Origin: Hydrolagus colliei
Lineage: Eukaryota
Direction: 5' to 3'
Length of the DNA: 64,000 nucleotides
Assembly (NCBI GenBank): GCA_035084275.1
Contig: CM068757.1
Coordinates: 15,810,001 to 15,874,000 of the forward strand
The notes under the pieces are model-generated. The model was given only the letters and a program-made list of their open reading frames with translations, had not been told where the DNA came from and made no database searches. Positions within the stretch are counted from its first letter, which is position 1. Every line of letters begins with the position of its first letter. Of this stretch, positions 1 to 61,207 are shown one piece after another. Position numbers and translations under genes: made by a program.

Positions 1-912
1 TTGCACACCTGCAGCTTGTTGACCTCCCCCACTGTTAGGCAATAGCTTGCTCGAACTTCTTTTGAATCTCTCTCAGCCATGTCCATAGACAAGGCAGTTT
101 TACATGCTAACTCAAATGTTAGCTGTGACATTGTCATTAATTTGTTTTGGATACGGTCGCTCTTCAGTCTGCACACAAATCTATCTCGTAATGCAAGGTC
201 CTGGAAATCTCCAAAATTGCAGTGTATCGACAGCTTTTTCAACCCTACGAAAAAACTGCCAATGTTTTCCTCTGGTAATTGACATCTGGTACCAAATCGG
301 TAACTCTCTGCAATCTCTAATGGCTTTGGGTCATCGTGTTCTGTAAGCTTTTCAAGGATGTCCTTCAATGGGGTGTCCTTAGGCCTAGTTGCGGTTAACA
401 AATTCTTCACTGTTTCATACACATCGGGACCCACTTCTGTCAGAAAGATTGCTCTCATTCTTTCTTGCACTGCTGTATTTACACTTCCAGAATTATCTTC
501 AGCAGCTTCAATTTCAACAATATTATTGGCAGCAAAGAACATCTCCAAACGCTCAATCTAAGCACTAAACATTTCCCGGCTTTGTTGAAACTCACCCAAT
601 TGTCCGATGTATCCGATGGGAGTCTTCATTTGGGGATTTTTTTTATCAGTACCACCACACGTGAACACAAACCTTACTGGATTTGTAGCTCTCAATCAAA
701 ATGAAAGTATTCACAGACCTCTAGGCACTTTGTAGAGACCTTCTCCTACAAACAGACATAGCTAGGGAATCCCATCCTCGTCGCCAATTTGTGATATATC
801 TGGGACTACAAGTATCAGAAACGTTCAGGCTGCAATGTTATGGAAAACAACTGCACATATCATGTGGTTTATTTACATTTCTATACACTGGTCAGCAGAT
901 GGCACTCTCACA
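1..912 (-). mobile_element. Ty3/Gypsy (Mag-type) LTR retrotransposon copy 1, 5' end only (gag, PBS 767-786, 5' LTR 790-912)
   Basis: Matches 32424-33335. Confidence 0.93.
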
Positions 913-1022
913 AACCTGAAGTTTCTTTTGAAATTTGATGATGCTTTAGGAGAACTGCACATTATACTTGTGCACCAGATCATTTTTGCTAAGCAATCTC
1001 TCTTTTCCAATGTTGTCAACAG

Positions 1023-1064
1023 CATTCACCACAGAGCCATCGACAACCTTCTCTACAACCACAG
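1023..1064 (+). CDS. Micro-exon type F (42 nt, AFTTEPSTTFSTTT), splice sites intact in this copy
   Basis: ctcttttccaatgttgtcaacAG|cattcacc...accacag|GTagtt. Confidence 0.5.
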
Positions 1065-4000
1065 GTAGTTGTGTTATTATCAGTCCTGGAGACTTTGGCA
1101 AACTTCACTTCAATACAGAGTCCTCGTAAAAATAGCCACTATGATAACTTATCCTCTATTTCTACTGAAATTTGATGCAATATATTTCTCATCATTGCAT
1201 TCTAACACCAACAACTGCAACAGCAGCAGCCCCCACTACAATAACAGGTAAACAAAGAACAAATTCCAACTCTCCATTCCAGAACAAACATCTTATTAAC
1301 TATAAACTTCCATTGTATATTTGCCATCCTGTAAGAATGCAGCCTCTATGATCATTACACAAACGATGTGTCCTGTCCCTTATGTCCTACTGGATTCACA
1401 TGGACCACATTTTTAAATGTACGTTAGATATTGGGTTTCTTTCTTCTTGTTATTGGTGATGGAGGGAAACAGCTGATATTAATCCTGCAGCAGTCACCAG
1501 CTTCTACCCATTTTATGGTTAGTGCCCGGCAGACATCACTTCCAAATCTTGTTGAATGTATAACCACAGGAATTGTGCCACTAACTATTCAAAGGAGCCT
1601 CTTAGTGCTATGTTGCGACTTGCTTCATTCATTCACTCACGTTTTTCGACTCAATTGTACATCCTTCTATTTACTGCAGGCGATGTCCAGGACTCACCAC
1701 CAAGTAAGTGTTGTCTTCACACACCTTGTGCTACGGGGATGTAGGAAGATATTAAACAGATGATTAAATTGATCTTGAGGGGTTTATCATTTGAAACTCG
1801 ATGAATGATTTAGCAGACTTGAACATCAGACATGTGCACAAGATCACATTTGCTAAGCAATGCCTCTTATCTAATATTGTCAGCAGCATTCCCCACAGAG
1901 TCTTCGACAACATTCTCTACAACAACAGGTATTTGTGAAATTGTCAGTCTTGGTGCCTTCATCAATCTTTACTTTGATACAAAACAGCAACCATCATATG
2001 CTAACCTCGAATTCTGTTGAAGGTTGATGCAATATATTTCTCCTCAACTTCTTACTTTCTAGCACCAACAACTACAACATCAACAATCCCCAGTACACCA
2101 GGTAAGCAAAGAACTTCCAACTCTGCATTTGACCCGCTTTGTACAATTTAACATCGATCGTCTTTCCTCCACCACACCCAATCAATGATCCGCTCTACCT
2201 TCCCTCACCTCCACAATATTGCCTGACTCCACCATTACCTCATCCCTGATACCGCTGAAACTCTCATTCATGTGTTGCTGACATCCAGGCTCACTATGCC
2301 GACGTCTTGCTTGTCGACCTTCCTAATTCATCCATCCATAGTTTGCAGATAATCCAGAACTCTGCAGTTTTCAGAGTGTCCTCTCCAATCTAAGCTTTGT
2401 GATCCCATCTCCCTCATCTTCACCTGACTCTGTTTACTCCCCATCATCTAGAGAATCCAATTGAATATCCTGCTCTTCACATTCAATTCCCTCCATGGCC
2501 TCGGCCCACCCTATATTTGCAACCTTATCTGCCTGCCCCCTCCGCTCAGGAGGCTCCGGCCTGTTCCACATTCCCCAACTCACTCTGCCATTGGCGGGCG
2601 AGCCTTCTGACACTCTGCTCCCAACCTCTGTAACTCCAACCCGCATTTCCTCCACCTTGCCCCTTCCCTGGCTTCCTTCAAATCCCGCCTCAAGACTCTC
2701 CTCTTTGACTGCCCCATCAATCACCCCTAAATCCCCCACTTCCACTCCACCCTCCCTGATCCTGACCCCATCTTATGTCTGAAACAATGACTGAAACAAT
2801 GAAACAACCCCCTCTACGACATCAGGTAAACAAAGAACAACTTCCAACTCTACATTTCCTGAGCAAACATCTACTTGATTGTCTTCACATTTCTCTATTA
2901 CAGTCACAATCGCCCTCCTTTAACTCATTGTTATCTCATTCTCTACGGTTTCCACAGGATGCGCACGCATGTCTTCATCAACAACCACCACTGAAACTGG
3001 TGAGGAACAGCACATTTCTACAGACACAACTGTTACATATCACATAGAGAAATCAGGCTACAAGAATCCTGCCACTTGCTTTGGCCACAACAGCAGCCAC
3101 TCTCCCAGTATCATTGCCAAATACTAGCTCAAACTTCAGCTTCAAGCAACTGAAAGAGGAGAATCATCTGAAGCATTTAGTTGCTCCACATTTATTCCTT
3201 CAAATTCTCACTTTAGAGCAACATCAGAAAACACTCTGACACAATGCTCAGCAACACTGTTCACTCCAATAACAGTTGTAGCCACATTAACTGCCTTTGA
3301 TTCAACTACTCGAATTACCCGTGTACACTTTGTCCAGAGCAGTCTCCAATGCCCATTTTGCCATTGATACTATGTTGAATGGAAACACTTGAAGCTTCCT
3401 TCTGGAGGTTCCTAGACCAATCTTTCTCAAGAAACAGCGCAGCTGCTAATGACCAACACACCTGCACTGGCACAATGCCTCTATCGTGTATCAACAGCAG
3501 CAGTAAACCACACGACCAGCCACTCCATTTTGTTTCCCTGCTGTGACATTAATTGTGCCCATTCATGCTGCCAACTCCATTGAAAGACAAAAACTGGCTG
3601 AAAGAATCACATTCATTTCTGTGCTTTCCAATCTTTCCAACTTTCTATTCCGACAGAAACATCAACAGCCACGACTTTGATATCAGGTATAAACGAGCAG
3701 AAGCTTCTCTCTTCCCATTTACGGTACAATGTCCTCTTTGTCCACCTGTGATTCAAACTTCCATTAACTATTTGCCATCCTGTAAGAACACAGCCTCAAT
3801 GAGCATTAGACAAACGATATGTCCTTTCCACTATGTCCTGCAAGAATCACATAGACCATTTTTTCACGTGTAATTTAAATATTGGATTTCTTTCTTCTTG
3901 TTAGTGCTGCTGGAGGGAAACAGCCAATTTTATCCCTGCAGCAGATACCAGCTTCTACCCATTACCTGGTGACCGCTGGGCAAGAAACATTTCCAAATCT

Positions 4001-7000
4001 TGTTGAGGGCACAACCACAGGAATTGAGTCACTAGATATTGAAAGGAGACTCTTAGCATGATGCTGTAACTTGCCTCATTCATTCACGTTTTTCCACTCA
4101 ATTGTAAACCCTTCGATGTACTGCAGACATTGTCATGCACAGACCAATGAGAAGGTTGTGTGTTCACACAGCTAGTGCTACCAGCATGTAGAAAGATATT
4201 AAACAGATGATTGTGTTCAACTTGAAGCATTTTTTTTTCAAATTTGATGAGTGATTTAGGAGAACTGCACATTATACTTGTGCATCAGATCACTTTTGCT
4301 AAGCAGCGTCTCTTTTCCAATGCTGTCAGCAGCATTCACCACAGAGCCATCGACAACTTTCTCAACAACCACAGTTATTTGTGTTACTGTCAGTGCCTTT
4401 GTCAACCTTCACTTCAATACAATGTCCTCGTAAGAATAGCCACTATGATAACTTAACCTCTATTTCTACTGAAAGTTGATGCAATATGTTTCTCATCATT
4501 ACATTCTAGCACCAACAACAACTACTACAACAGCAGCACCCACTACAATAACAGGTAAACAAAGAACAAATTCCAACTCTCCATTCCAGAACAAACATCT
4601 TATTAACTATAAACTTCCATTGTATATTTGCCATCCTGTAAGAATGCAGCCTCTATGATCATTACACAAACGATGTGTCCTGTCCCTTATGTCCTACTGG
4701 ATTCACATGGACCACATTTTTAAATGTACGTTAGATATTGGGTTTCTTTCTTCTTGTTATTGGTGATGGAGGGAAACAGCTGATATTAATCCTGCAGCAG
4801 TCACCAGCTTCTACCCATTTTATGGTTAGTGCCCGGCAGACATCACTTCCAAATCTTGTTGAATGTATAACCACAGGAATTGTGCCACTAACTATTCAAA
4901 GGAGCCTCTTCGTGCGATGTTCCGACTTGCTTCATTCATTCACTCATGTTTTTCGACTCAATTGTACATCCTTCTATTTACTGCAGGCAGTGTCCGGAAC
5001 ACAGCACCAAGTAAGTGTTGTCTTCACACACCTTGTGCTACGGGGATCTAGGAAGATATTAAACAGATGATTAATTTGATCTTGAGGGGTTTATCTTTGG
5101 AAACTCGATGAATGATTTAGCAGACTTGAACATCAGACATGTGCACAAGATCACATTTGCTAAGCAATGCCTCTTATCTAATATTGTCAGCAGCATTCCC
5201 CACAGAGTCTTCGACAACATTCTCTACAACAACAGGTATTTGTGAAATTGTCAGTCTTGGTGCCTTCATCAATCTTTACTTTGATACAAAACAGCAACCA
5301 TCATATGCTAACCTCGAATTCTGTTGAAGGTTGATGCAATATATTTCTCCTCAACTTCTTACTTTCTAGCAACAACAACTAAAACATCAACAACCCCCTC
5401 TACGACATCAGGTAAACAAAGAACAACTTCCAACTCTACATTTCCTGAGCAAACATCTACTTGATTGTCTTCACATTTCTCTATTACAGTCACAATCGCC
5501 CTCCTTTAACTCATTGTTATCTCATTCTCTACGGTTTCCACAGGATGCGCACGCATGTCTTCATCAACAACCACCACTGAAACTGGTGAGGAACAGCACA
5601 TTTCTACAGACACAACTGTTACATATCACATAGAGAAATCAGGCTACAAGAATCCTGCCACTTGCTTTGGCCACAACAGCAGCCACTCTCCCAGTATCAT
5701 TGCCAAATACTAGCTCAAACTTCAGCTTCAAGCAACTGAAAGAGGAGAATCATCTGAAGCATTTAGTTGCTCCACATTTATTCCTTCAAATTCTCACTTT
5801 AGAGCAACATCAGAAAACACTCTGACACAATGCTCAGCAACACTGTTCACTCCAATAACAGTTGTAGCCACATTAACTGCCTTTGATTCAACTACTCGAA
5901 TTACCCGTGTACACTTTGTCCAGAGCAGTCTCCAATGCCCATTTTGCCATTGATACTATGTTGAATGGAAACACTTGAAGCTTCCTTCTGGAGGTTCCTA
6001 GACCAATCTTTCTCAAGAAACAGCGCAGCTGCTAATGACCAACACACCTGCACTGGCACAATGCCTCTATCGTGTATCAACAGCAGCAGTAAACCACACG
6101 ACCAGCCACTCCATTTTGTTTCCCTGCTGTGACATTAATTGTGCCCATTCATGCTGCCAACTCCATTGAAAGACAAAAACTGGCTGAAAGAATCACATTC
6201 ATTTCTGTGCTTTCCAATCTTTCCAACTTTCTATTCCGACAGAAACATCAACAGCCACGACTTTGATATCAGGTATAAACGAGCAGAATCTTCTCTCTTC
6301 CCATTTACGGTACAATGTCCTCTGTGTCCACCTGTGATTCAAACTTCCATTAACTATTTGCCATCCTGTAAGAACACAGCCTCAATGAGCATTAGACAAA
6401 CGATATGTCCTTTCCACTATGTCCTGCAAGAATCACATAGACCATTTTTTCACGTGTAATTTAAATATTGGATTTCTTTCTTCTTGTTAGTGCTGCTGGA
6501 GGGAAACAGCCAATTTTATCCCTGCAGCAGATACCAGCTTCTACCCATTACCTGGTGACCGCTGGGCAAGAAACATTTCCAAATCTTGTTGAGGGCACAA
6601 CCACAGGAATTGAGTCACTAGATATTGAAAGGAGACTCTTAGCATGATGCAGTAACTTGCCTCATTCATTCACGTTTTTCCACTCAATTGTAAACCCTTC
6701 GATGTACTGCAGACATTGTCATGCACAGACCAATGAGAAGGTTGTGTGTTCACACAGCTAGTGCTACCAGCATGTAGAAAGATATTAAACAGATGATTGT
6801 GTTCAACTTGAAGCATTTTTATTTCAAATTTGATGAGTGATTTAGGAGAACTGCACATTATACTTGTGCACCAGATCACTTTTGCTAAGCAGCGTCTCTT
6901 TTCCAATGCTGTCAGCAGCATTCACCACAGAGCCATCGACAACTTTCTCAACAACCACAGTTATTTGTGTTACTGTCAGTGCCTTTGTCAACCTTCACTT

Positions 7001-10000
7001 CAATACAATGTCCTCGTAAGAATAGCCACTATGATAACTTAACCGCTATTTCTACTAAAGGTTGATGCAATATGTTTCTCATCATTACATTCTAGCACCA
7101 ACAACAACTACTACAACAGCAGCCCCCACTACAATAACAGGTAAACAAAGAACAAATTCCAACTCTCCATTCCAGAACAAACATCTTATTAACTATAAAC
7201 TTCCATTGTATATTTGCCATCCTGTAAGAATGCAGCCTCTATGATCATTACACAAACGATGTGTCCTGTCCCTTATGTCCTACTGGATTCACATGGACCA
7301 CATTTTTAAATGTACGTTAGATATTGGGTTTCTTTCTTCTTGTTATTGGTGATGGAGGGAAACAGCTGATATTAATCTTGCAGCAGTCACCAGCTTCTAC
7401 CCATTTTATGGTTAGTGCCCGGCAGACATCACTTCCAAATCTTGTTGAATGTATAACCACAGGAATTGTGCCACTAACTATTCAAAGGAGCCTCTTCGTG
7501 CGATGTTCCGACTTGCTTCATTCATTCACTCATGTTTTTCGACTCAATTGTACATCCTTCTATTTACTGCAGGCAGTGTCCGGAACACACCAGCAAGTAA
7601 GTGTTGTCTTCACACACCTTGTGCTACGGGGATCTAGGAAGATATTAAACAGATGATTAATTTGATCTTGAGGGGTTTATCTTTTGAAACTCGATGAATG
7701 ATTTAGCAGACTTGAACATCAGACATGTGCACAAGATCACATTTGCTAAGCAATGCCTCTTATCTAATATTGTCAGCAGCATTCCCCACAGAGTCTTCGA
7801 CAACATTCTCTACAACAACAGGTATTTGTGAAATTGTCAGTCTTGGTGCCTTCATCAATCTTTACTTTGATACAAAACAGCAACCATCATATGCTAACCT
7901 CGAATTCTGTTGAAGGTTGATGCAATATATTTCTCCTCAACTTCTTACTTTCTAGCAACAACAACTAAAACATCAACAACCCCCTCTACGACAGCAGCTA
8001 AACAAAGAACAACTTCCAACTCTACATTTCCTGAGCAAACATCTACTTGATTGTCTTCACATTTCTCTATTACTGTCACAATCGCCCTCCTTTAACTCAT
8101 TGTTATCTCATTCTCTACGGTTTCCACAGGATGCGCACGCATGTCTTCATCAACAACCACCACTGAAACTGGTGAGGAACAGCACATTTCTACAGACGCA
8201 ACTGTTACATATCACATAGAGAAATCAGGCTACAAGAATCCTGCCATTGGCTTTGGCCAGAACAGCAGCCACTCTCCCAGTATCAATGCCTGGCTCAAAC
8301 TTCAGCTTCAAGCAACTGAAAGAGGAGAATCATCTGAAGCATTCAGTCCGATTGCTCCACATTTATTCCTTCAAATTCTCACTTTAGAGCAACATCAGAA
8401 AACACTCTGACACAATGCTCAGCAACACTCTTCACTCCAACAACAGTTGTAGCCACATTAACTGCCTTTCACTCAACTACTTGAATTACCCATGCACACT
8501 TTGTCCAGAGCAGTCTCCAATGCCCATTTTTCCATTGATACTATGTTGAATGGAAACACTTGAAGCTTGCTTCTGGAGGTTCCTGGACCAATCTTTCTCA
8601 AGAAGCAGCGCAGCTGCTAATGAACAACACACCTGGCACTGCCACATTGCCTCTATTGTGTATCAATAGCAGCAGTAAACCACACGACCAGCCACTCCAT
8701 TTTGTTTCCCTGCTGTGACATTAATTGTGCCCATTCATGCTGCCAATTCCATTGAAAGACAAAAACTAGCTGGAAGAATCACATTCGTTTCTGTGCTTTC
8801 CAATCTTTCCAACTTTCTATTCCAACAGAAACATCAACAGCCACGACTTCGACATCAGGTATACAAAGAGCAGAAGCTTCTCTCCTCCCATTTACGGTGC
8901 AATATCCCCTTTGACCACCTGTGATTCAAACTTCCATTAACTATTTGCCATCCTGTAAGAATGTATCCTCTGTGAGCATTAGACAAATGAAATGTCCTTT
9001 CCCTTATGTCCAGCTGGAATCACACAGCACTTTTTCACACGTACTTTAGTTATTGGGTTTCTTTCTTCTTGTTAGTGCTGATGGAGGGAAACAGCCAATA
9101 TTAACCTTGCAGCAGATACCAGCTTCTGCCCATTACCTGGTGATCGCAGGGCCAGAAACATTTCCAAATCTTGTTGAGGGCGTAACCACAGGAATTGTGT
9201 CGCGAGATATTGAAAGGAGACTCTCAGCATGATGTTGTAACTTGACTCATTCATTCACATTTTTCCACTCAATTCTAAACCCTTCGATCTACTGCAGACA
9301 TTGCCATGGACAGAGCAATAAGAAAGGATGTAGAAAGATATCAAACAGATGATTGAATTGAACTTCAAGCGGTTTTCTTTTGAAATTTGATGAGTGATTT
9401 AGAAGAACTGCACATTATTCTTGTGCACCAGATCATTTTTGCTAAGCAATCTCTCGTTTCCAATGTTGTCAGCAGCATTCACCTCACAGGCATCGACAAC
9501 CTTCTCTACAACCACGGGTATTTGTGTTATTGTCATTCTTGGTGCTTTCATTCAATACAGCGTCATCGTAAAAATAGCCACTATGATAAATTAACCTCTA
9601 TTGCTACTAATATTTGATGCAATATATTTCTCCTCAACTTCTTACTTTCTAGCAACAACAACTAAAACATCAACAACCCCCTCTACGACAGCAGGTAAAC
9701 AAAGAACAACTTCCAACTCTACATTTCCTGAGCAAACATCTACTTGATTGTCTTCACATTTCTCTATTACAGTCACAATCACCCTCCTTTAACTCATTGT
9801 TATCTCATTCTCTACGGTTTCCACAGGATGCGCACGCATGTCTTCATCAACAACCACCACTGAAACTGGTGAGGAACAGCACATTTCTACAGACACAACT
9901 GTTACATATCACATAGAGAAATCAGGCTACAAGAATCCTGCCATTAGCTTTGCCCACAACAGCAGCCACTCTCCCAGTATCATTGCCAAACACTAGCTCA

Positions 10001-13000: not shown

Positions 13001-16000
13001 CTGTGACATTAATTGTGCCCATTCATGCTGCCAACTCCATTGAAAGACAAAAACTAGCTGGAAGAATCACATTTGTTTCTGTGCTTTCCAATCTTTCCAA
13101 CTTTCTATTCCAACAGAAACATCAACAGCCACGACTTCGACATCAGGTATACAAAGAGCAGAAGCTTCTCTCCTCCCATTTACGGTGCAATATCCCCTTT
13201 GACCACCTGTGATTCAAACTTCCATTAACTATTTGCCATCCTGTAAGAATGTATCCTCTGTGAGTATTAGACAAATGAAATGTCCTTTCCCTTATGTCCA
13301 GCTGGAATCACACAGCACTTTTTCACACGTACTTTAGTTATTGGGTTTCTTTCTTCTTGTTAGTGCTGATGGAGGGAAACAGCCAATATTAACCTTGCAG
13401 CAGATACCAGCTTCTGCCCATTACCTGGTGATCGCAGGGCCAGAAACATTTCCAAATCTTGTTGAGGGCGTAACCACAGGAATTGTGTCGCGAGATATTG
13501 AAAGGAGACTCTCAGCATGATGTTGTAACTTGACTCATTCATTCACATTTTTCCACTCAATTCTAAACCCTTCGATCTACTGCAGACATTGCCATGGACA
13601 GAGCAATAAGAAAGGATGTAGAAAGATATCAAACAGATGATTGAATTGAACTTCAAGCGGTTTTCTTTTGAAATTTGATGAGTGATTTAGAAGAACTGCA
13701 CATTATTCTTGTGCACCAGATCATTTTTGCTAAGCAATCTCTCGTTTCCAATGTTGTCAGCAGCATTCACCTCACAGGCATCGACAACCTTCTCTACAAC
13801 CACGGGTATTTGTGTTATTGTCATTCTTGGTGCTTTCATTCAATACAGCGTCATCGTAAAAATAGCCACTATGATAAATTAACCTCTATTGCTACGAATA
13901 TTTAATGCAATATATTTCTCGTCAGACATGATAAATACCACTTTTTATTTTGCAGCACCAACAACTGCAACATCAACAATACCCACAACAACAACAGGTA
14001 AACAAGGAACAACTTCCCACTCTCCATTCCAGAACAAACATCTACTTGATTGTCTTCACTTTTCTCTATTAAAGTCACAATCGCGCTCTTCATTGTTATC
14101 TCTTTTCCTATTGTTTCTATTTGATGCGCACGCATGTCTTCATTCAACAACCACCACTGAAACTGGTGAGGAACAGCACATTTCTACAGACACAACTGTT
14201 ACATATCACATAGAGAAATCAGGCTACAAGAATCCTGCCACTTGCTTTGGCCACAACAGCAGCCACTCTCCCAGTATCATTGCCAAACACTAGCTCAAAC
14301 TTCAGCTTCAAGAGACTGAAAAAGGAGAATCATCTGAAGCATTCAGTCAGATTGCTCCACATTTATTCCTTCAAATTGTCACTTTAGAGAAACATCAGAA
14401 AACACTCTGACACAATGCTCAGCAACATCCTTCACTCCAATAACAGTTGTAGCCACATTAACTGCCTTTGCTTCAACTACTCGAATTACCCGTCCAGAGC
14501 ATTACTTTGTCCAGAGCAGTCTCCAATGCCCATTTTGCCATTGATACTATGTTGAATGGAAACACTTGAAGCTTCCTTCTGGAGGTTCCTAGACCAATCT
14601 TTCTCAAGAAACAGCGCAGCTGCTAATGACCAACACACCTGCACTGGCACAATGCCTCTATCGTGTATCAACAGCAGCAGTAAACCACACGACCAGCCAC
14701 TCCATTTTGTTTCCCTGCTGTGACATTAATTGTGCCCATTCATGCTGCCAACTCCATTGAAAGACAAAAACTGGCTGAAAGAATCACATTCATTTCTGTT
14801 CTTTCCAATCTTTCCAACTTTCTATTCCGACAGAAACATCAACAGCCACGACTTTGATATCAGGTATAAACGAGCAGAAGCTTCTCTCTTCCCATTTACG
14901 GTACAATGTCCTCTGTGTCCACCTGTGATTCAAACTTCCATTAACTATTTGCCATCCTGTAAGAACACAGCCTCAATGAGCATTAGACAAACGATATGTC
15001 CTTTCCACTATGTCCTGCAAGAATCACATAGACCATTTTTTCACGTGTAATTTAAATATTGGATTTCTTTCTTCTTGTTAGTGCTGCTGGAGGGAAACAG
15101 CCAATTTTATCCCTGCAGCAGATACCAGCAGCGGACACCATTACCTGGTGACCGCTGGGCAAGAAACATTTCCAAATCTTGTTGAGGGCACAACCACAGG
15201 AATTGAGTCACTAGATATTGAAAGGAGACTCTTAGCATGATGCTGTAACTTGCCTCATTCATTCACGTTTTTCCACTCAATTGTAAACCCTTCGATGTAC
15301 TGCAGACATTGTCATGCACAGACCAATGAGAAGGTTGTGTGTTCACACAGCTAGTGCTACCAGCATGTAGAAAGATATTAAACAGATGATTGTGTTCAAC
15401 TTGAAGCATTTTTGTTTCAAATTTGATGAGTGATTTAGGAGAACTGCACATTATACTTGTGCACCAGATCACTTTTGCTAAGCAGCGTCTCTTTTCCAAT
15501 GCTGTCAGCAGCATTCACCACAGAGCCATCGACAACTTTCTCAACAACCACAGTTATTTGTGTTACTGTCAGTGCCTTTGTCAACCTTCACTTCAATACA
15601 ATGTCCTCGTAAGAATAGCCACTATGATAACTTAACCTCTATTTCTACTAAAAGTTGATGCAATATGTTTCTCATCATTACATTCTAGCACCAACAACAA
15701 CTACTACAACAGCAGCCCCCACTACAATAACAGGTAAACAAAGAACAAATTCCAACTCTCCATTCCAGAACAAACATCTTATTAACTATAAACTTCCATT
15801 GTATATTTGCCATCCTGTAAGAATGCAGCCTCTATGATCATTACACAAACGATGTGTCCTGTCCCTTATGTCCTACTGGATTCACATGGACCACATTTTT
15901 AAATGTACGTTAGATATTGGGTTTCTTTCTTCTTGTTATTGGTGATGGAGGGAAACAGCTGATATTAATCCTGCAGCAGTCACCAGCTTCTACCCATTTT

Positions 16001-28000: not shown

Positions 28001-31000
28001 TTGTGCTGATGGAGTTAAACAGCCAATTTTAACCCTGTGGTAGATACCAGCTTATACCCGTTACCTGATAACCACTGTGCCATAAACATTTCCAAATCTT
28101 GTTGCGGGCATAACCACAGGAATTGTACCAATAGACATTGAAAGGAGACTCTTAGCATGATGCTGTAACTTGCCTCATTCATTTACGTTTTTCCACTCAA
28201 TTGTAAAACCTTCGATGTACTGCAGACATTGTCATGGAAACACCAATAAGAAAGTTGTGTATTCACACAGCTAGCACTACCAGGATGTAGAACGATATCA
28301 AACAGATAATTCAATTGAACTTGAAGGGGTTTTCTTTTGAAATTTGATGAGTGATTTAGGAGAACTGCACCTTATTCTTGTGCACCAGATCACTTTTGCT
28401 AAGCAATGTCTCTTTTTCAATGTTGTCAGCAGAATTCACCACAGAGCCATCGACAACCTTCTCTACAACAACAGGTATTTGTGTTATTGTCAGTCCTGGT
28501 GCCTTCGTCAACCTTCAATTCAAAACAGTGTCCTCGTAAATATAGCCACTATGATATCTTAACCACTATTGCTACTGAAAGTTGATGCAATATATTAAAC
28601 AGATGATTGAATTGAACTGTGTGATATCTCTGGGACTACAATTATCACACATGTTCACGCTGCAATGTTCTGGGAAACGACTGCACACATCATGTGATTT
28701 ATTTACATTTATTTCCACGGTCACTAGATGGCGCTATCACGGCTCCTCCCTCCTTAATGAAGAAATTATGAAAAAGTTACAATTACTGACATTCAAAACA
28801 CGATGCTATGTACAATTGTTTTTCTACATATGTACAATTTATAAATACATACGTACAATTTATGTATATTATCATGTTCAAACTGTGACACATCCAACGA
28901 AAATTCAAACTTGACTTCTGGTTTCCTACTTTCCCTGTCCAAAAGTTTTAGGACTCATGGTAGCACTCGGACTTTTAGAACTCATGGTAACACTCGGACT
29001 TGCCATGTGTCCAGTCTGGTATTCATCTTGACTTTCACTCCTAGTCTCCAGTTACTCAGTCAGGCTCTTGACTATCACCTGGAACTAAACCCTCACCTTC
29101 ATTCACACTTGAATTCTGGTTTTCTGTTAAGTCCTCTGTTACCATTACTGACTTGTTCATTGGTCTAAAACTATTTGGTTGATTAGATTTATCCATTTCT
29201 CTCCACTCTTCCGGTACTTGTGTAGGTAAGATGTGATCAATATGGACAAATCTGAGTTTGCCACTTTCAAACATCCTGACCAAATAGGTGCGCGGTCCAC
29301 ATACTTTCACTAATCTTCCTGGTACCCACTTTACCCATTTGTGATGATGGTTCTTCACTTTAACTTTTTTATTTATCTCCATCTTTCTGTCTTTCACCCT
29401 TACTCCATCATGGTTCTCTCTCTGCCTCTCCTGTTTTCCATCTACCATTTGTGCTAAATTGGGATACAACAATGAAAATCTTGTTCTCGGGTGTCTTTTT
29501 AGGAACACGTCAGCCGGTGTTCTGCCTGTAGTGGTGTGAAGTGTCTTACGATACGTTATCAGAAAGTTGGCTGGTTTGTGAGGCAATGATAATTGACTTT
29601 GGGGTTGCATCTCGCATTTGCTAACCTAGCGTGCGTTTGACAATTTGCACATTGCGCTCCGAAGCACCATTCAAAGCTGGATGGTATGCAGCTACTCTAG
29701 TGTGCTTCACACCATTCTTTTCCATGCATTGCGCGAACTCTTCTGAACAGAACTGTGGTCCATTGTCAGACACGATTTCCTCTGGAAATCCATATGAAGC
29801 AAACGACCCTCTAACAATATCCAGTTTTGCTAGATATTGTTGTGTTCATCGGAAACACCTCAACCCACTTGGAATGACAATGTATCACAATGAACAACTA
29901 CTATCCATCTAGATCAGCAAAATCTATCTGTAACCTTTGCCACACTCTGGCTGGCCATTTCCAGGACCGTAGTGGTAGTGTTAGTGGACTCCTTCCAACC
30001 GACTCACATACACTACACTGTTTTACTGTGTTTTCAATGTATTTATCCAACCCTGGCCACCATAAGTAGTTCTAGCTAGACTCTTGGTCAGACACATCCC
30101 TCGGCGTTGATCATGAAGATCACCGAAAAACTGTTCTCTGTACCTTTCAGGGATAACAACTCTAGCTCCCCACATGACACATCCTTGGTCATTTGACAAT
30201 TCATGTCTCCTAACAAAGTATGGCCTAATTTCTTCTTCTGTCTCAGTTATATGACTAGGCCACCCACTCACAATATAGTCATGCACCTTGGATAAAATCA
30301 TGTCCCTACGAGTTGACTTGCTGATGTCACTTGATGTGACCGGCAGCTACTCAATATGGGAAAAATAGAACACATCTTCCCTGTTGGATTTCATTTCTGA
30401 TGCTAAGGGTAACCTCGACATTGCATCGGCATTACCATGGTCTGCTGACCTACGATATTGTAAGTCGTACTGGTATGCTGACAAGATCAACGACCATCTT
30501 TGCATTCTGGCTGCTGCTAGAGTAGGTACCTGTGATTTTGGATTTAGGATTGCTGTCAAAGGTTTATGGTCTGTTTCAATGATGAAATTGCGACCATATA
30601 GTATTTGTGGAATCTCCTAGCTCCAAAAATCAAGGCCAAAGCTTCTCTCTCTATTTCGGCGTAGTTTTTCTCACGACTACTCAGGGTTCTAGAAGCGAAC
30701 GCTGTCAGTCTCTCTGCCCCTGTTTCGAATACATGAGAGATAACTGCACCAACCCCGTATGGGGGGGCGTCACATGCTAGCTTGATGGTCTTTGTGACAT
30801 CATAGTGTACCAGCATTGTACCATCTATTAGATGTTTTTTACACGACTTGAAAGCCTGGTCACATTCACGTGTCCATTTACATGGCACATCTTTCTTCAA
30901 AAGCTCATCCAAGGGGTGTATAAAGGTTGACAAATTTGGAATGAATTTTCCATAATAATTCAACAATCCCAAGAATGATCGTAGCTCAGATGTGTTTCTG

Positions 31001-34000
31001 GGAATGGGCACGTTCCTGATCGCATTGACCTTACTCTGAGTTGGGTGCAACCCATCTTTGTCTACCTTGAGCCCTAGGTACTCTAAAGACTCTTTAAACA
31101 TCTCACATTTGTGAGCCTTGACGCGTACTTGGAGTTTCTCTAACCTTTGTTACACCATGTGTAGCCTTTCGTCATCAACCTGCCTATTTGGCGCAGAGAT
31201 GACTATGTCATCAAGGTAGCATATTACCCCATCGATTCCCTCTAGAATCTGAGTCATGAACCCTTGGAAAATTCCTGGGCTTGACGCAACGCCAAATGGT
31301 AGCCTATTGTATTGATACAGGCCCATATGAGTGTTGATAGTCAAGTACGTCTTTGACTTCTCATCTAGCTCTAACTGTTAATAGACGTTTGACAAGTCCA
31401 TTTTAGAACATACTTTACCACCTACCAATGTGTTGAACAAATCTTCTACATTTGGTAACGTGTCAGGTGGACTACACTCCAGAACTCGATTCACTGTTAC
31501 CTTGTAGTCCCCACAGATTCTGATACTACCATCAGATTTTGGAACTACAACAATGGAAGTAGTCCAATTACTTTGTTGTACTTTACTGATAATGTTCTCC
31601 TTTTCCAGTCTTTTCAGTTCTTTTTCTACTTTTTCTCTCATTGCGTATGGCACTGGGCGTGGCTTATAGTGCCTTGTACGTGGGCCTTGCTTCACCTTGC
31701 ACTCCTAAACTTGCTTTGTATCCGCTGATGGGTGCACCGGATTCACTGAACACCGTTGAATGCTTTTTTTCCCTCTCTTCCTGTGTTGTGAACGAGATTT
31801 GCACAGGGAAAATTTCTTGCCAATCTAATTTCAGCGAGTTCATCCAATTTCTACCAAGTAATACTGGTTTTTCTCACTTCACCACAAGAATTGGCAAATC
31901 TGCACATTGATCCTTGTATTTAACTGGAACACACACTCTACCCAAAACTGGGATGATCTCTCCTCCATAGTTGCGCAGCTCGACCCTTGCTGTTTGTAGC
32001 TTATTTTTGCTCAACTTTTCTCGGTGCAGTTTTTCAGACACCACACTGACTGCTGCTCCAGTATCAACTTCCATGATTACTGGGACTCCATCCAATGTTA
32101 CTTGGACCTTGATGCTATGCAATTTGCTACTGGATGCTTTTGTGTTGTAGATCATGTTGATCTCCACTGGCTCCTCAGAGTCCTCACTCTCCTGGTGTCG
32201 CTCAACCGTATGCAGAAACTGACGTCTTTTCTTGACCGCATTCGTCCGCTTCGACTTGAAACAAGCCTTTGCAAGATGCCCAGTCTTATGGCACGAATAT
32301 CACTCCACTTTCGTCAAAAGGCAAGATTGTGCTGGATGAGAACCCAGACATCGATAGCATGACTTTGAACTCGTCCCGCTACTCTTCCCTCGTGGTCGAT
32401 TCACAAGTGCTTTGAATTTCACTTTGCACACCTGCAGCTTGTTGACCTCCCCCACTGTTAGGCAATAGCTTGCTCGAACTTCTTTTGAATCTCTCTCAGC
32501 CATGTCCATAGACAAGGCAGTTTTACATGCTAACTCAAATGTTAGCTGTGACATTGTCATTAATTTGTTTTGGATACGGTCGCTCTTCAGTCTGCACACA
32601 AATCTATCTCGTAATGCAAGGTCCTGGAAATCTCCAAAATTGCAGTGTATCGACAGCTTTTTCAACCCTACGAAAAAACTGCCAATGTTTTCCTCTGGTA
32701 ATTGACATCTGGTACCAAATCGGTAACTCTCTGCAATCTCTAATGGCTTTGGGTCATCGTGTTCTGTAAGCTTTTCAAGGATGTCCTTCAATGGGGTGTC
32801 CTTAGGCCTAGTTGCGGTTAACAAATTCTTCACTGTTTCATACACATCGGGACCCACTTCTGTCAGAAAGATTGCTCTCATTCTTTCTTGCACTGCTGTA
32901 TTTACACTTCCAGAATTATCTTCAGCAGCTTCAATTTCAACAATATTATTGGCAGCAAAGAACATCTCCAAACGCTCAATCTAAGCACTAAACATTTCCC
33001 GGCTTTGTTGAAACTCACCCAATTGTCCGATGTATCCGATGGGAGTCTTCATTTGGGGATTTTTTTTATCAGTACCACCACACGTGAACACAAACCTTAC
33101 TGGATTTGTAGCTCTCAATCAAAATGAAAGTATTCACAGACCTCTAGGCACTTTGTAGAGACCTTCTCCTACAAACAGACATAGCTAGGGAATCCCATCC
33201 TCGTCGCCAATTTGTGATATATCTGGGACTACAAGTATCAGAAACGTTCAGGCTGCAATGTTATGGAAAACAACTGCACATATCATGTGGTTTATTTACA
33301 TTTCTATACACTGGTCAGCAGATGGCACTCTCACAAACCTGAAGTTTCTTTTGAAATTTGATGATGCTTTAGGAGAACTGCACATTATACTTGTGCACCA
33401 GATCATTTTTGCTAAGCAATCTCTCTTTTCCAATGTTGTCAACAGCATTCACCACAGAGCCATCGACAACCTTCTCTACAACCACAGGTAGTTGTGTTAT
33501 TATCAGTCCTGGAGACTTTGGCAAACTTCACTTCAATACAGAGTCCTCGTAAAAATAGCCACTATGATAACTTATCCTCTATTTCTACTGAAATTTGATG
33601 CAATATATTTCTCATCATTGCATTCTAACACCAACAACTGCAACAGCAGCAGCCCCCACTACAATAACAGGTAAACAAAGAACAAATTCCAACTCTCCAT
33701 TCCAGAACAAACATCTTATTAACTATAAACTTCCATTGTATATTTGCCATCCTGTAAGAATGCAGCCTCTATGATCATTACACAAACGATGTGTCCTGTC
33801 CCTTATGTCCTACTGGATTCACATGGACCACATTTTTAAATGTACGTTAGATATTGGGTTTCTTTCTTCTTGTTATTGGTGATGGAGGGAAACAGCTGAT
33901 ATTAATCCTGCAGCAGTCACCAGCTTCTACCCATTTTATGGTTAGTGCCCGGCAGACATCACTTCCAAATCTTGTTGAATGTATAACCACAGGAATTGTG

Positions 34001-58000: not shown

Positions 58001-61000
58001 GTCCTTCAATGGGGTGTCCTTAGGCTTAGTTGGGGTTAACAAATTCTTCACTGTTTCATACACATCGGGACCCACTTCTGTCAGAAAGATTGCTCTCATT
58101 CTTTCTTGCACTGCTGTATTTACACTTCCAGAATTATCTTCAGCAGCTTCAATTTCAACAATATTATTGGCAGCAAAGAACATCTCCAAACGCTCAATCT
58201 AAGCACTAAACATTTCCCGGCTTTGTTGAAACTCACCCAATTGTCCGATGTATCCGATGGGAGTCTTCATTTGGGGATTTTTTTTATCAGTACCACCACA
58301 CGTGAACACAAACCTTACTGGATTTGTAGCTCTCAATCAAAATGAAAGTATTCACAGACCTCTAGGCACTTTGTAGAGACCTTCTCCTACAAACAGACAT
58401 AGCTAGGGAATCCACTATCCCATCCTCATCACCAATTTGTGATATATCTGGGACTACAAGTATCAGAAACGTTCAGGCTGCAATGTTATGGAAAACAACT
58501 GCACATATCATGTGGTTTATTTACATTTCTATACACTGGTCAGCAGATGGCACTCTCACAAACCTGAAGTTTCTTTTGAAATTGGATGATGCTTTAGGAG
58601 AACTGCACATTATACTTGTGCACCAGATCATTTTTGCTAAGCAATCTCTCTTTTCCAATGTTGTCAACAGCATTCACCACAGAGCCATCGACAACCTTCT
58701 CTACAACCACAGGTAGTTGTGTTATTATCAGTCCTGGAAACCTTGGCAAACTTCACTTCAATACAGAGTCCTCGTAAAAATAGCCACTATGATAACTTAT
58801 CCTCTATTTCTACTGCAATTTGATGCAATATATTTCTCATCATTGTATTCTAACACCAACAACTGCAACAGCAGCAGCCCCCACTACAATAACAGGTAAA
58901 CAAAGAACAAATTCCAACTCTCCATTCCAGAACAAACATCTTATTAACTATAAACTTCCATTGTATATTTGCCATCCTGTAAGAATGCAGCCTCTATGAT
59001 CATTACACAAACGATGTGTCCTGTCCCTTATGTCCTACTGGATTCACATGGACCACATTTTTAAATGTACGTTAGATATTGGGTTTCTTTCGTCTTGTTA
59101 TTGGTGATGGAGGGAAACAGCTGATATTAATCCTGCAGCAGTCACCAGCTTCTACCCATTTTATGGTTAGTGCCCGGCAGACATCACTTCCAAATCTTGT
59201 TGAATGTATAACCACAGGAATTGTGCCACTAACTATTCAAAGGAGCCTCTTCGTGCGATGTTCCGACTTGCTTCATTCATTCACTCATGTTTTTCGACTC
59301 AATTGTACATCCTTCTATTTACTGCAGGCGATGTCCAGAACACACCAGCAAGTAAGTGTTGTCTTCACACACCTTGTGCTACGGGGATCTAGGAAGATAT
59401 TAAACAGATGATTAATTTGATCTTGAGGGGTTTATCTTTTGAAACTCGATGAATGATTTAGCAGACTTGAACATCAGACATGTGCACAAGATCACATTTG
59501 CTAAGCAATGCCTCTTATCTAATATTGTCAGCAGCATTCCCCACAGAGTCTTCGACAACATTCTCTACAACAACAGGTATTTGTGAAATTGTCAGTCTTG
59601 GTGCCTTCATCAATCTTTACTTTGATACAAAACAGCAACCATCATATGCTAACCTCGAATTCTGTTGAAGGTTGATGCAATATATTTCTCCTCAACTTCT
59701 TACTTTCTAGCAACAACAACTAAAACATCAACAACCCCCTCTACGACAGCAGCTAAACAAAGAATAACTTCCAACTCTACATTTCCTGAGCAAACATCTA
59801 CTTGATTGTCTTCACATTTCTCTATTACAGTCACAATCGCCCTCCTTTAACTCATTGTTGTCTCATTCTCTACGATTTTCACAGGATGCGCACGCATGTC
59901 TTCATCAACAACCACCACTGAAACTGGTGAGGAACAGCACATTTCTACAGACGCAACTGTTACATATCACATAGAGAAATCAGGCTACAAGAATCCTGCC
60001 ATTGGCTTTGCCCAGAACAGCAGCCACTCTCCCAGTATCAATGCCAAACACTAGCTCAAACTTCAGCTTCAAGCAACTGAAAGAGGAGAATCATCTGAAG
60101 CATTCAGTCCGATTGCTCCACATTGATTCCTTCAAATTCTCACTTTAGAGCAACATCAGTGCTCTAAATTCAACTACTTGAATTACCCATGCACACTTTG
60201 TCCAGAGCAGTCTCCAATGCCCATTTTTCCATTGATACTATGTTGAATGGAAACACTTGAAGCTTGCTTCTGGAGATTCCTGGAAGAATCCTTTTCAAGA
60301 AGCAGCACAGCTGCTAATGAACAACACACCTGGCACTGCCACATTGCCTCTATTGTGTATCAATAGCAGCAGTAAACCACATCACCAGCCACTCCATTTT
60401 CTTTCACTGCTGTGACATTAATTGTGCCCATTCATGCTGCTAACTCCATTGAAAGATAAACACTGGCTGAAAGAATCACATTCCTTTCTGTGCTTTCCAA
60501 TCTTTCCAACTTTCTATTCCAACAGAAACATCAACAGCCACGACTTCGACATCAGGTACACAAAGAGCAGAAGCTTCTCTCCTCCCATTTGTGGTGCAAA
60601 CTTCCATTATCTATTTGCCATCCTGTAAGAATGTAGCCCCTATGAGCATTAGACTAATGATATGACCTTTCCCTTATGTCCTGTTGGAATCACATGGACC
60701 ACTTTTTTAGATATTGGGTTTCTTTCTTCTTGTTAGTGCTGATGGAGTTAAACAGCCAATTTTAACCCTGTGGTAGATACCAGCTTCTACCCGTTACCTG
60801 ATAACCACTGTGCCATAAACATTTCCAAATCTTGTTGCGGGCATAACCACAGGAATTGTGCCAATAGACATTGAAAGGAGACTCTTAGCATGATGCTGTA
60901 ACTTGCCTCATTCATTTACGTTTTTCCACTCAATTGTAAAACCTTCGATGTACTGCAGACATTGTCATGGAAACACCAATAAGAAAGTTGTGTATTCACA

Positions 61001-61207
61001 CAGCTAGCACTACCAGGATGTAGAACGATATCAAACAGATAATTCAATTGAACTTGAAGGGATTTTCTTTTGAAATTTGATGAGTGATTTAGGAGAACTG
61101 CACATTATTCTTGTGCACCAGATCACTTTTGCTAAGCAATGTCTCTTTTCCAATGTTGTCAGCAGAATTCACCACAGAGCCATCGACAACCTTCTCTACA
61201 ACAACAG
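1023..61207 (+). CDS. Putative multi-exon mucin-like (PTS-rich) gene segment built from tandemly amplified phase-1 micro-exons; both gene ends lie outside the window
   Basis: Repeated pyrimidine-tract+AG ... G|GT-bounded segments of 24/27/30/39/42/45 nt, separated by 130-660 nt. In unit 2958-5411, joining 2958-2999, 3657-3686, 3942-3968, 4510-4554, 4798-4824, 4987-5010, 5194-5235 and 5370-5411 gives 279 nt = GCARMSSSTTTTET-ETSTATTLIS-ADTSFYPLP-APTTTTTTAAPTTIT-AVTSFYPFY-GSVRNTAP-TFPTESSTTFSTTT-ATTTKTSTTPSTTS with no stop. Expression not shown. Confidence 0.6.
2063..2101 (+). CDS. Micro-exon type A variant (39 nt, APTTTTSTIPSTP)
   Basis: cttcttactttctAG|caccaaca...cagtacaccag|GTaagc; one codon shorter than the 42-nt type, frame preserved. 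Confidence 0.6.
2128..2775 (+). mobile_element. L2-type (CR1/L2 clade) non-LTR retrotransposon 3' fragment, decayed
   Basis: Broken frames read HLHNIA*LHHYL...AETLIHVLLTSRL, LQIIQNSA, LHGLGPPY, PLRS, GGRAF*HSAPNLCNS, SFKSRLKTLLF, matching the L2 ORF2 C-terminus; C-rich. Confidence 0.85.
2958..2999 (+). CDS. Micro-exon type D (42 nt, GCARMSSSTTTTET)
   Basis: ctctacggtttccacAG|gatgcgca...gaaactg|GTgagg; about 18 copies in the window (e.g. 5544-5585). Confidence 0.6.
3219..3503 (+). pseudogene. Probable dead 285-nt phase-1 exon (ATSENTLTQCSATLFTPITVVATLTAFDSTTRIT...VSTAA)
   Basis: Follows ttccttcaaattctcactttagAG; Thr/Ser/Ala-rich start; in-frame TGA and TAG; ends cagcag-taaac, i.e. the usual cag|gtaaac donor lacking one G. 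Confidence 0.4.
3657..3686 (+). CDS. Micro-exon type C (30 nt, ETSTATTLIS; ETSTATTSTS in other copies)
   Basis: Long pyrimidine tract ctttccaatctttccaactttctattccgacAG|aaacatca...gatatcag|GTataa. Confidence 0.6.
3942..3968 (+). CDS. Micro-exon type H (27 nt, ADTSFYPLP), weak donor
   Basis: ttttatccctgcAG|cagatacc...ttacctg|GTgacc; paralogue of type G. Confidence 0.35.
4333..4374 (+). pseudogene. Type F micro-exon with donor mutated GT>TT in the 2586-bp unit
   Basis: gtcagcAG|cattcacc...accacag|TTattt, versus GTattt/GTagtt in copies 1023-1064, 9476-9517, 28433-28474. Confidence 0.5.
4510..4554 (+). CDS. Micro-exon type B (45 nt, APTTTTTTAAPTTIT)
   Basis: cattacattctAG|caccaaca...caataacag|GTaaac; all Thr codons fall in one frame. 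Confidence 0.65.
4798..4824 (+). CDS. Micro-exon type G (27 nt, AVTSFYPFY)
   Basis: ttaatcctgcAG|cagtcacc...ttttatg|GTtagt; also 1491-1517. Confidence 0.4.
4987..5010 (+). CDS. Micro-exon type I (24 nt, GSVRNTAP; GDVQDSPP / GDVQNTPA in variants)
   Basis: ccttctatttactgcAG|gcagtgtc...gcaccaa|GTAAGT (full consensus intronic donor hexamer); also 1680-1703. Confidence 0.55.
5194..5235 (+). CDS. Micro-exon type E (42 nt, or 45 nt via NAGNAG; xFPTESSTTFSTTT)
   Basis: ctaatattgtCAGCAG|cattcccc...caacaacag|GTattt; also 1887-1928. Confidence 0.6.
5370..5411 (+). CDS. Micro-exon type A (42 nt, ATTTKTSTTPSTTS)
   Basis: ttctcctcaacttcttactttctAG|caacaaca...gacatcag|GTaaac; also 9653-9694. Confidence 0.65.
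13956..13997 (+). CDS. Divergent type A/B micro-exon (42 nt, APTTATSTIPTTTT)
   Basis: ctttttattttgcAG|caccaaca...acaacag|GTaaac; different upstream intron sequence but same length and phase; second copy near 42125-42166. Confidence 0.6.
28620..28741 (-). repeat. 3' LTR of Gypsy copy 2
   Basis: tgtgatatctctgggactaca...gatggcgctatcacg aligns to 33213-33335. Confidence 0.9.
28742..28755 (-). promoter_or_regulatory. Polypurine tract
   Basis: Minus strand AAGGAGGGAGGAGC immediately before the 3' LTR. Confidence 0.8.
28900..30301 (-). pseudogene. pol: Gypsy integrase, fragmented
   Basis: WGARVVIP...LH, core GFPEEIVSDNGPQF and YHPALNGASER (read from reverse of ~29650-29800), YRKTLHTTTGRTPA, WVPG...GPRTY. 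Confidence 0.88.
28946..28999. repeat. 2 x 27-bp tandem duplication near the end of Gypsy pol
   Basis: ttttaggactcatggtagcactcggac / ttttagaactcatggtaacactcggac; present in all 3'-containing copies. Confidence 0.85.
30347..31695 (-). pseudogene. pol: Gypsy reverse transcriptase / RNase H, fragmented
   Basis: PRPVPY, IRICGDYK, RLPFGVASSPGIFQ, YLDD, LRSFLGLLNYY, ACDA, EREALA, NADAMSR across several broken ORFs. Confidence 0.93.
31874..32167 (-). pseudogene. pol: Gypsy aspartic protease fragment
   Basis: MEVDTGAAVSVV active-site motif. Confidence 0.9.
32230..33052 (-). pseudogene. gag: Gypsy gag with two zinc knuckles, disrupted
   Basis: MKTPIGYIGQLGEF...*IERLEMFF...LRDRFVC; CYRCLGSHPAQSC and *YSCHKTGHLAKAC; internal stops. 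Confidence 0.85.
33190..33209 (-). promoter_or_regulatory. Primer-binding site for tRNA-Ser(GCT)
   Basis: + strand GAATCCCATCCTCGTCGCCA matches, from recall, the 3' end (with CCA) of metazoan tRNA-Ser(GCT); 3 nt from the LTR. Confidence 0.88.
33213..33335 (-). repeat. 5' LTR of Gypsy copy 2
   Basis: TGTGAtat...ctcTCACA terminal inverted repeat; adjacent to PBS. Confidence 0.9.
33336..46357. repeat. Tandem array block 2: about 5 units; its start duplicates block 1 at offset 32423
   Basis: ORFs 835->33258, 2495->34918, 6139->38562 and 7725->40148 are all +32423 with essentially identical translation. Confidence 0.97.
34551..35198 (+). mobile_element. Second copy of the same L2 fragment (+32423)
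   Basis: Same sequence and flanks as 2128-2775. Confidence 0.85.
46358..51065 (-). mobile_element. Gypsy copy 3 (4708 bp), decayed
   Basis: Same domains and flanks as copy 2; LTRs 46358-46479 and 50943-51065. Confidence 0.96.
53853..58560 (-). mobile_element. Gypsy copy 4 (4708 bp), decayed
   Basis: Copy 3 + 7495; identical ORF translations; 5' LTR 58438-58560. Confidence 0.96.

Follow-up and report, generated by a model that had tools for sequence, protein, structure and literature searches.

Introduction

Gel-forming mucins are polymerized through their D domains and cystine knot, and the proline-, threonine-, and serine-rich (PTS) region of the chain is O-glycosylated. Many short exons coding for Thr/Ser-rich or secreted modules are known from MUC19, the integumentary mucins of frogs, and the micro-exon genes of schistosomes. 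Here, we analyze a stretch of 64,000 nucleotides (the window) from the 1.0-Gb assembly of the chimaera (holocephalan) Hydrolagus colliei, namely C24:15,810,001-15,874,000, where C24 stands for contig CM068757.1. Window positions 1023..61207 of the plus strand carry part of an array of short exon-like cassettes. From its sequence, the window most probably lies inside a gel-forming mucin gene of Muc6 type whose PTS region would be spread over about 190-246 symmetric micro-exons of 24-45 nt, as counted from predicted splicing.

The mucin domains of human MUC2, MUC5AC, MUC5B, and MUC6 are each described as a single exon (PMC9712336). The human-centered literature, as presented in a preprint, has all canonical mucins holding their repeats in one large exon and gives the central exon of human MUC19 as free of introns (PMC13345508). 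Multi-exon PTS regions have been described in chicken. That of Muc13, a transmembrane SEA mucin, is divided among many exons with one repeat per exon (at least 12 near-identical exons of 20 aa), a design proposed to be ancestral and to allow control of length by splicing (Lang et al. 2006, PMC1552070). Chicken MUC2 is gel-forming, and its repetitive PTS region is reported to extend through exons 32-45, whose genomic flanks are repeated as well (Jiang et al. 2013, PMC3549977).

The H. colliei gene is like chicken Muc13, as described in that source, in having its PTS region split among many exons, but it would be gel-forming and has 11 exon types of 8-15 codons, higher-order cassettes, and interspersed dead exons. 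It is closer to chicken MUC2 in being gel-forming with a repetitive, multi-exon PTS region and repeated flanks; however, the chicken gene is reported with about 14 exons holding 69-aa repeats and CysD (PMC3549977), not hundreds of symmetric micro-exons. Where the mucin domain of human MUC6 is given as one exon (PMC9712336), up to 246 predicted exons extend here over 124 kb. A literature search of incomplete coverage retrieved no description of a micro-exon PTS region for Muc6 or for any chondrichthyan mucin. Most probably, the gene is a member of the Muc6 family with an unusual gene architecture, multi-exon PTS domains as such being already known from chicken Muc13.

Results

An array of symmetric cassettes between mucin exons

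The anatomy of the gene, its splice signals, phases, and open frame can be read directly from the DNA. Self-comparison of the window gives a main repeat period of 2586 bp, together with higher-order blocks of 7.5, 17.7, and 32.4 kb. An initial annotation of the window had reported that each 2586-bp unit holds eight intact AG/GT-bounded segments joining into a stop-free 93-aa peptide (36 Thr, 14 Ser, 8 Pro). The segments, with their sizes and phases, were reproduced (exons A, B, C, D, F, G, H, and I below), and the peptide was matched exactly when the 42-nt form of exon I was used. Their constancy did not hold up, as all eight are intact in only 6 of 18 B-anchored repeats in the window, the other 12 being shorter variants or having lost sites. 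Each full unit additionally contains two dead cassettes, X and E.

The entire array occupies C24:15,801,383-15,926,112 (about 125 kb), starting about 8.6 kb before the window and ending about 52 kb after it. With 12 cassette types, we mapped 347 cassettes across the entire array, 174 of them in the window. Those that are intact, with both AG and GT present and the phase 1-1 frame open, number 246 in the array and 126 in the window. The intact cassettes of the window would be worth 1493 aa under predicted splicing, or 1376 aa without exon D. The remaining 101 cassettes of the array comprise 51 that have lost a site but kept the frame, 34 that keep AG/GT with a broken frame (28 copies of X with a cryptic donor, 5 copies of D of 29 nt, and 1 misaligned C), 13 that have lost both, and 3 that are partial. 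Dead cassettes are scattered among live ones, and the subunits show nested homology, with G-H-I-A corresponding to D-X-E-F.

On the plus strand upstream of the array, VWD matches were found at C24:15,765,703, 15,778,364, and 15,792,692 and C8 matches at C24:15,768,821, 15,785,873, and 15,798,593, ceasing about 2.6 kb before the array. They belong to an open N-terminal chain of 26 exons with canonical sites and three VWD-C8 units (C24:15,757,453-15,800,646, plus strand). The 25 internal exons all have AG/GT, are open, and are near the sizes of their counterparts in the paralogs described below, which had been used as a help in setting the boundaries. The chain opens at C24:15,757,453 with a putative signal-peptide exon of 55 nt, recognized by a hydropathy scan, which has an ATG, a hydrophobic core, and a phase 1 end and resembles its counterpart in paralog a; additional small 5' exons are possible. 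The last exon of the D3 region ends in phase 1 at 15,800,646, from where it is about 1.0 kb to the first cassette that is intact.

Downstream, about 0.93 kb past the last cassette, a phase-1 acceptor opens the first of two cystine-knot-like exons on the plus strand (C24:15,927,039-15,927,141 and from 15,927,959), which are followed by a stop codon and an ATTAAA. The two exons encode a C-terminal domain of 95 aa with 11 Cys that can be aligned to the C-terminal ends of the Muc6 proteins of rat and Xenopus (tblastn E of about 1e-5 to 3e-5). Protein searches with the second of these exons gave no homologue in one case and, in another, only four unnamed proteins with many short matched stretches. 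Mucin exons, for which the initial annotation had proposed inspecting the flanks, are thus present on both sides, on the same strand and in matching phase. Together with the splice scores given below, they support at the DNA level its interpretation of a mucin-like gene with a micro-exon PTS region. Between the array and the stop codon there is no VWD or C8 match, i.e., no fourth VWD after the PTS region, and none of the array's three plus frames contains a CysD-like WxxW pattern.

Joining the 26, 246, and 2 exons in silico gives a stop-free product of 4176 aa. Its predicted PTS region of 2914 aa (2428 aa without exons D and G), for which 8742 of 124,453 bp (7%) are exonic, contains 38.3% Thr, 15.5% Ser, 8.0% Pro, and no N-glycosylation sequon. 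Given the predicted splicing, this composition lies within the published criterion for PTS domains of at least 40% Thr plus Ser and more than 5% Pro (PMC4948705).

Phase coherence and splice signals

We scanned for AG..GT segments of 15-149 nt that are rich in Thr, Ser, or Pro, without regard to phase. On the plus strand, all 72 window matches and all 134 array matches were in phase 1-1; the minus strand gave 10 window matches, all of 16 nt and phase 1-2, and 15 array matches of a single 16-nt type. The 113 kb of N-terminal regions of the three Muc6-like paralogs yielded one match. Since the copies of the array are not independent, the fair comparison is that of a single unit with its shuffles: one unit, cut such that exon A fell on its edge, gives four matches, where 300 dinucleotide shuffles averaged 0.037 and never exceeded 1.

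Splice sites were scored with generic vertebrate frequency tables, not MaxEntScan, and calibrated on the 25 internal N-terminal exons of the gene. Six of the seven top-scoring GTs among the 109 in the unit are proposed donors. Median acceptor scores were 3.6 for the array exons, 4.4 for the N-terminal exons, and -3.4 for decoys (5891 AGs), and the corresponding donor medians were 2.8, 3.4, and -5.6 (5354 GTs). The array sites therefore score far above decoy AG/GT and near the N-terminal exons on these tables. The donor of exon D, at 0.5, is slightly under the weakest N-terminal donor (0.6).

Weighing the alternatives

Several observations weigh against a micro-exon PTS gene. The Pfam Cys_knot match is weak, with the first exon at E=0.045 falling below the cut-off and the second giving none; a genome-wide Cys_knot search missed the knot of this gene. 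Slippage of ACA repeats alone would partly yield indels that preserve the frame. The protein model XP_042197479.1, treated below, is an automatic annotation that uses another frame and concerns paralog b. Finally, no purifying selection at the amino-acid level was seen (synonymous changes 11 of 50, against a neutral expectation of 14.1; 17 against 17.3 in the same test on paralog b), and 29% of the array cassettes (101/347) are dead, having lost a site or the frame.

The last two of these points also speak for an alternative in which the gene is genuine and the majority of its cassettes are skipped; the array would then be mainly a neutrally amplified, exon-like intronic repeat, with a short or absent PTS region in the mature mucin. 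Exons of 24-45 nt often depend on enhancers for their inclusion, and paralog a apparently lacks any PTS region. Nevertheless, the site scores of the array resemble those of the gene's constitutive exons, and the best donors in the unit remain the exon donors despite visibly diverged subunits. Exons beside an old retrotransposon insertion, whose long terminal repeats (LTRs) have diverged by 16%, are still open, and modules of paralog b are common to Callorhinchus, where they are joined in the public model. We therefore regard wholesale skipping as unlikely.

A recent pseudogene or a truncated protein is a further alternative, which we consider very unlikely. If the frameshifted 29-nt D (five copies, the first at window 15119) were included, the open reading frame would end at 1772 aa, before the cystine knot; this variant retains AG/GT, and its scores equal those of intact D. 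In contrast, the N-terminal and cystine-knot exons are all intact, and D, whose donor is the weakest of all, shows decay in 12 of its 37 copies, which would be expected of a mostly skipped exon. Dead cassette X, if included, would truncate the protein at 1284 aa, so that a full-length product requires selective skipping of both X and the 29-nt D.

It is hardly credible that assembly has inflated or distorted the size of the array, which would affect the exon count and not the architecture: large blocks are indeed highly identical (99.85% over 32 kb, 99.5% over 7.5 kb), but the copies differ by scattered substitutions and indels, and in sequencing run X1, perhaps from the source sample, contigs of the array are far deeper (728-2582) than a unique contig by the cystine-knot exon (28.3), a depth that does not represent copy number. 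At this gene, X1 contigs continue through introns, and the joints listed for them fall only within a high-copy interspersed repeat; the run behaves as DNA and is uninformative on splicing. A plain satellite or a pure transposon was rejected because the flanking exons and the phase coherence contradict it. Tandem Repeats Finder reported just a 27-bp repeat inside the retrotransposon.

Cassette types and inserted elements

The cassette types and inserted elements are collected in Table 1. Inclusion of exon D in the transcript is doubtful. A +1 frameshift variant of exon B is restricted to copies with a dead acceptor. The predicted PTS region contains 42 Cys, contributed by the 30 intact copies of B and by 12 copies of D; such a number would be unusual for a mucin domain and might possibly provide cross-linking sites.

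Table 1. Cassettes and inserted elements of the array, in window coordinates. Copy counts refer to the entire array.
Feature	Position	Strand	Description
Exon A	5370..5411	+	42 nt, phase 1-1; 15 of 31 intact; donor GT>CT in 14
Exon B	5544..5585	+	42 nt, phase 1-1; one Cys; 30 of 36 intact
Exon C	6243..6272	+	30 nt, phase 1-1; 37 of 38 intact
Exon D	6528..6554	+	27 nt; weakest donor; 25 of 37 intact, 7 with dead donor, 5 frameshifted
Dead cassette X	6713..6740	+	Homologous to H; corresponding donor lost, leaving only a weak cryptic GT at +28
Cassette E	6916..6960	+	Donor GT>TT in this lineage; of 44 copies, 21 dead and, elsewhere, 23 intact
Exon F	7096..7140	+	45 nt, phase 1-1; 20 of 28 intact
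Exon G	7384..7410	+	27 nt, aromatic-rich; weak acceptor; AG/GT kept in 29 of 29
Exon H	7573..7596	+	24 nt; strongest splice sites; 29 of 29 intact
Exon I	7777/7780..7821	+	45 or 42 nt via NAGNAG acceptor; 29 of 29 intact
Exon J	2063..2101	+	39 nt; 3 copies, the final one about 0.93 kb upstream of cystine-knot exon 1
Exon K	13956..13997	+	42 nt; 6 of 6 intact
Frameshifted D variant	15119..15147	+	29 nt; splice scores unchanged
Decayed LTR retrotransposon	28620..33334	-	Ty3/Gypsy order (protease, reverse transcriptase, RNaseH, integrase); short broken frames; lies in an intron flanked by two E cassettes
Further copies of the retrotransposon	1-911, 46358-51064, 53853-58559, 61353-64000		

The five antisense copies of the LTR retrotransposon make up about a third of the window. 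No clean target-site duplication could be recognized for the element. Its two LTRs are 84% identical, yet its seven copies are 98.75-100% identical and lie in the same flanks, which indicates a single old insertion that was multiplied with the array. A fragment of a high-copy interspersed repeat at window 2150-2800 and 34580-35215 is inserted after exon J, where it removed the acceptor of the next A cassette. This insert is also present ahead of the cystine-knot exon where the array ends, and the array end has therefore itself been copied into the array.

Among the larger blocks, window positions 1-9327 and 32424-41756 form a duplicate of at least 9.3 kb, 32.4 kb apart, with 99.85% identity, and positions 43577-64000 consist of tandem 7.5-kb copies with about 99.5% identity. 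These near-identical duplicates probably reflect a very recent expansion, with length polymorphism being likely.

Muc6 identity and the mucin gene cluster

The gene (paralog c) is the third of three Muc6-like paralogs, a, b, and c, on the plus strand, adjoining Muc2-like and Muc5-like genes, named from their best matches, on the minus strand. It resembles vertebrate MUC6/Muc6 (human MUC6; Callorhinchus milii UniRef A0A4W3HLM5) in having three VWD-C8 units, a PTS region, a cystine knot, and no fourth VWD, as well as in lying in one cluster with, and on the opposite strand to, Muc2-like and Muc5-like genes. Most of its N-terminal exons are 60-88% identical to a C. milii mucin-6-like protein, with lower identity to shark and skate proteins. 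In a quick IQ-TREE tree of 29 proteins (midpoint root, support from the SH-like approximate likelihood ratio test only, careful search unfinished, no Muc19 row), the gene falls among Muc6 proteins, split from nine Muc2/Muc5 rows with a support of 100. Each of a, b, and c is sister to a C. milii protein (100) and then to an elasmobranch group (100, 100, and 93). C. milii has been reported to have two Muc6 paralogs (Lang 2016, PMC4948705). By the tree, synteny, and the lack of D4 and CysD, the gene is classed as Muc6-type. Its position in a Muc2/Muc5 cluster and the names of its matches argue against Muc19, a name borne by none of the best 120 matches of the C. milii ortholog.

The cluster contains no long PTS open frame for paralog a, b, or c, so the single-large-exon state of human is not found in them. 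The Muc2-like gene (minus strand, C24:15,495,449-15,517,462) has one stop-free frame of 7338 aa with 41% Thr over about 22 kb, a candidate for a very large coding exon. The Muc5-like gene (minus strand, C24:15,437,214-15,444,233) has a PTS-rich frame of 2340 aa with ten CysD-like repeats. Paralog a (C24:15,567,360-15,615,700) has an extra, fourth N-terminal VWD-C8 unit; past its last D3 exon, the next good acceptor leads to one residue and a stop, as the C. milii mucin-6 model ends. No PTS exons or cystine knot were found for it ahead of paralog b, and it may be a PTS-less Muc6. Further downstream, a GC-rich minus-strand region at C24:~15,993,000-16,001,000 has exons whose motifs suggest a carnitine palmitoyltransferase 1 gene. 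Other multi-VWD genes lie at C13:4.30-4.43 Mb, C2:63.79-63.81 Mb, and C24:10.01-10.05 Mb, some of them possibly Muc19-like.

A second micro-exon array in paralog b

Paralog b carries its own micro-exon array (C24:15,673,646-15,741,300) with phase 1-1 exons of 21, 24, and 27 nt. In the interval from its last D3 exon to the knot-like exons (C24:15,740,265 and 15,741,106), 20 of 21 scan matches are of 24 nt and phase 1-1, and a listing made without regard to composition added three 27-nt families and one 21-nt exon. The modules include Pro, aromatic, and His types alongside Thr/Ser types. Stops occur in none of 33 exon haplotypes in the phase-1 frame, compared with 10 and 15 of 33 in the other frames. 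In the part of the b array that was compared, blastn detected no DNA similarity to the c array.

In the C. milii ortholog of paralog b, XP_042197479.1, 526 of 538 tail residues consist of 62 modules of 7-9 aa, which resemble paralog b exon families read in phase 0. This model, we infer, strings the homologous micro-exons together but reads them in the wrong frame. Basking shark and catshark models end in Tyr/Pro repeats of about 9 aa, like one b exon; a relationship between these tails and the b micro-exons is at present a lead only. The chondrichthyan Muc6-like database models that we inspected mostly stop at or shortly past D3.

Discussion

For a Muc6-type gene with a micro-exon PTS region, the array would have grown by unequal crossing-over that duplicates whole exon-intron cassettes, at nested scales of about 0.86, 1.7, 2.6, 7.5, and 32 kb. 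As all exons are symmetric, duplication and splice-site loss both keep the frame, and so exons could be born and die freely. The richness in Thr and Ser would persist throughout, with selection presumably acting on composition and frame and not on sequence. Dead X and the 29-nt D variant would be skipped, as perhaps would D in general. In the product, about 2400-2900 aa would form an O-glycosylated bottle-brush, flanked by the N-terminal D domains and the C-terminal cystine knot through which it would polymerize.

One cluster holds both designs of PTS region: the Muc5-like gene has a single frame of 2340 aa and the Muc2-like gene one of 7338 aa, and two of the Muc6 paralogs have micro-exon arrays. 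With the two designs adjoining each other, the 2006 proposal of an ancestral multi-exon PTS region with length control by splicing, as set out for chicken Muc13 (PMC1552070), becomes directly testable in a gel-forming mucin. The micro-exon design may also explain that Muc6 models of sharks and chimaeras in the databases break off past D3 or run in the wrong frame. More tentatively, cartilaginous fishes may have two old Muc6 paralog lineages whose arrays of symmetric micro-exons undergo birth and death, and alternative skipping might yield mucins of many lengths and glycosylation patterns, including aromatic and Pro spacer modules. The split design could then be the ancestral state of Muc6, and the giant exon of tetrapods derived.

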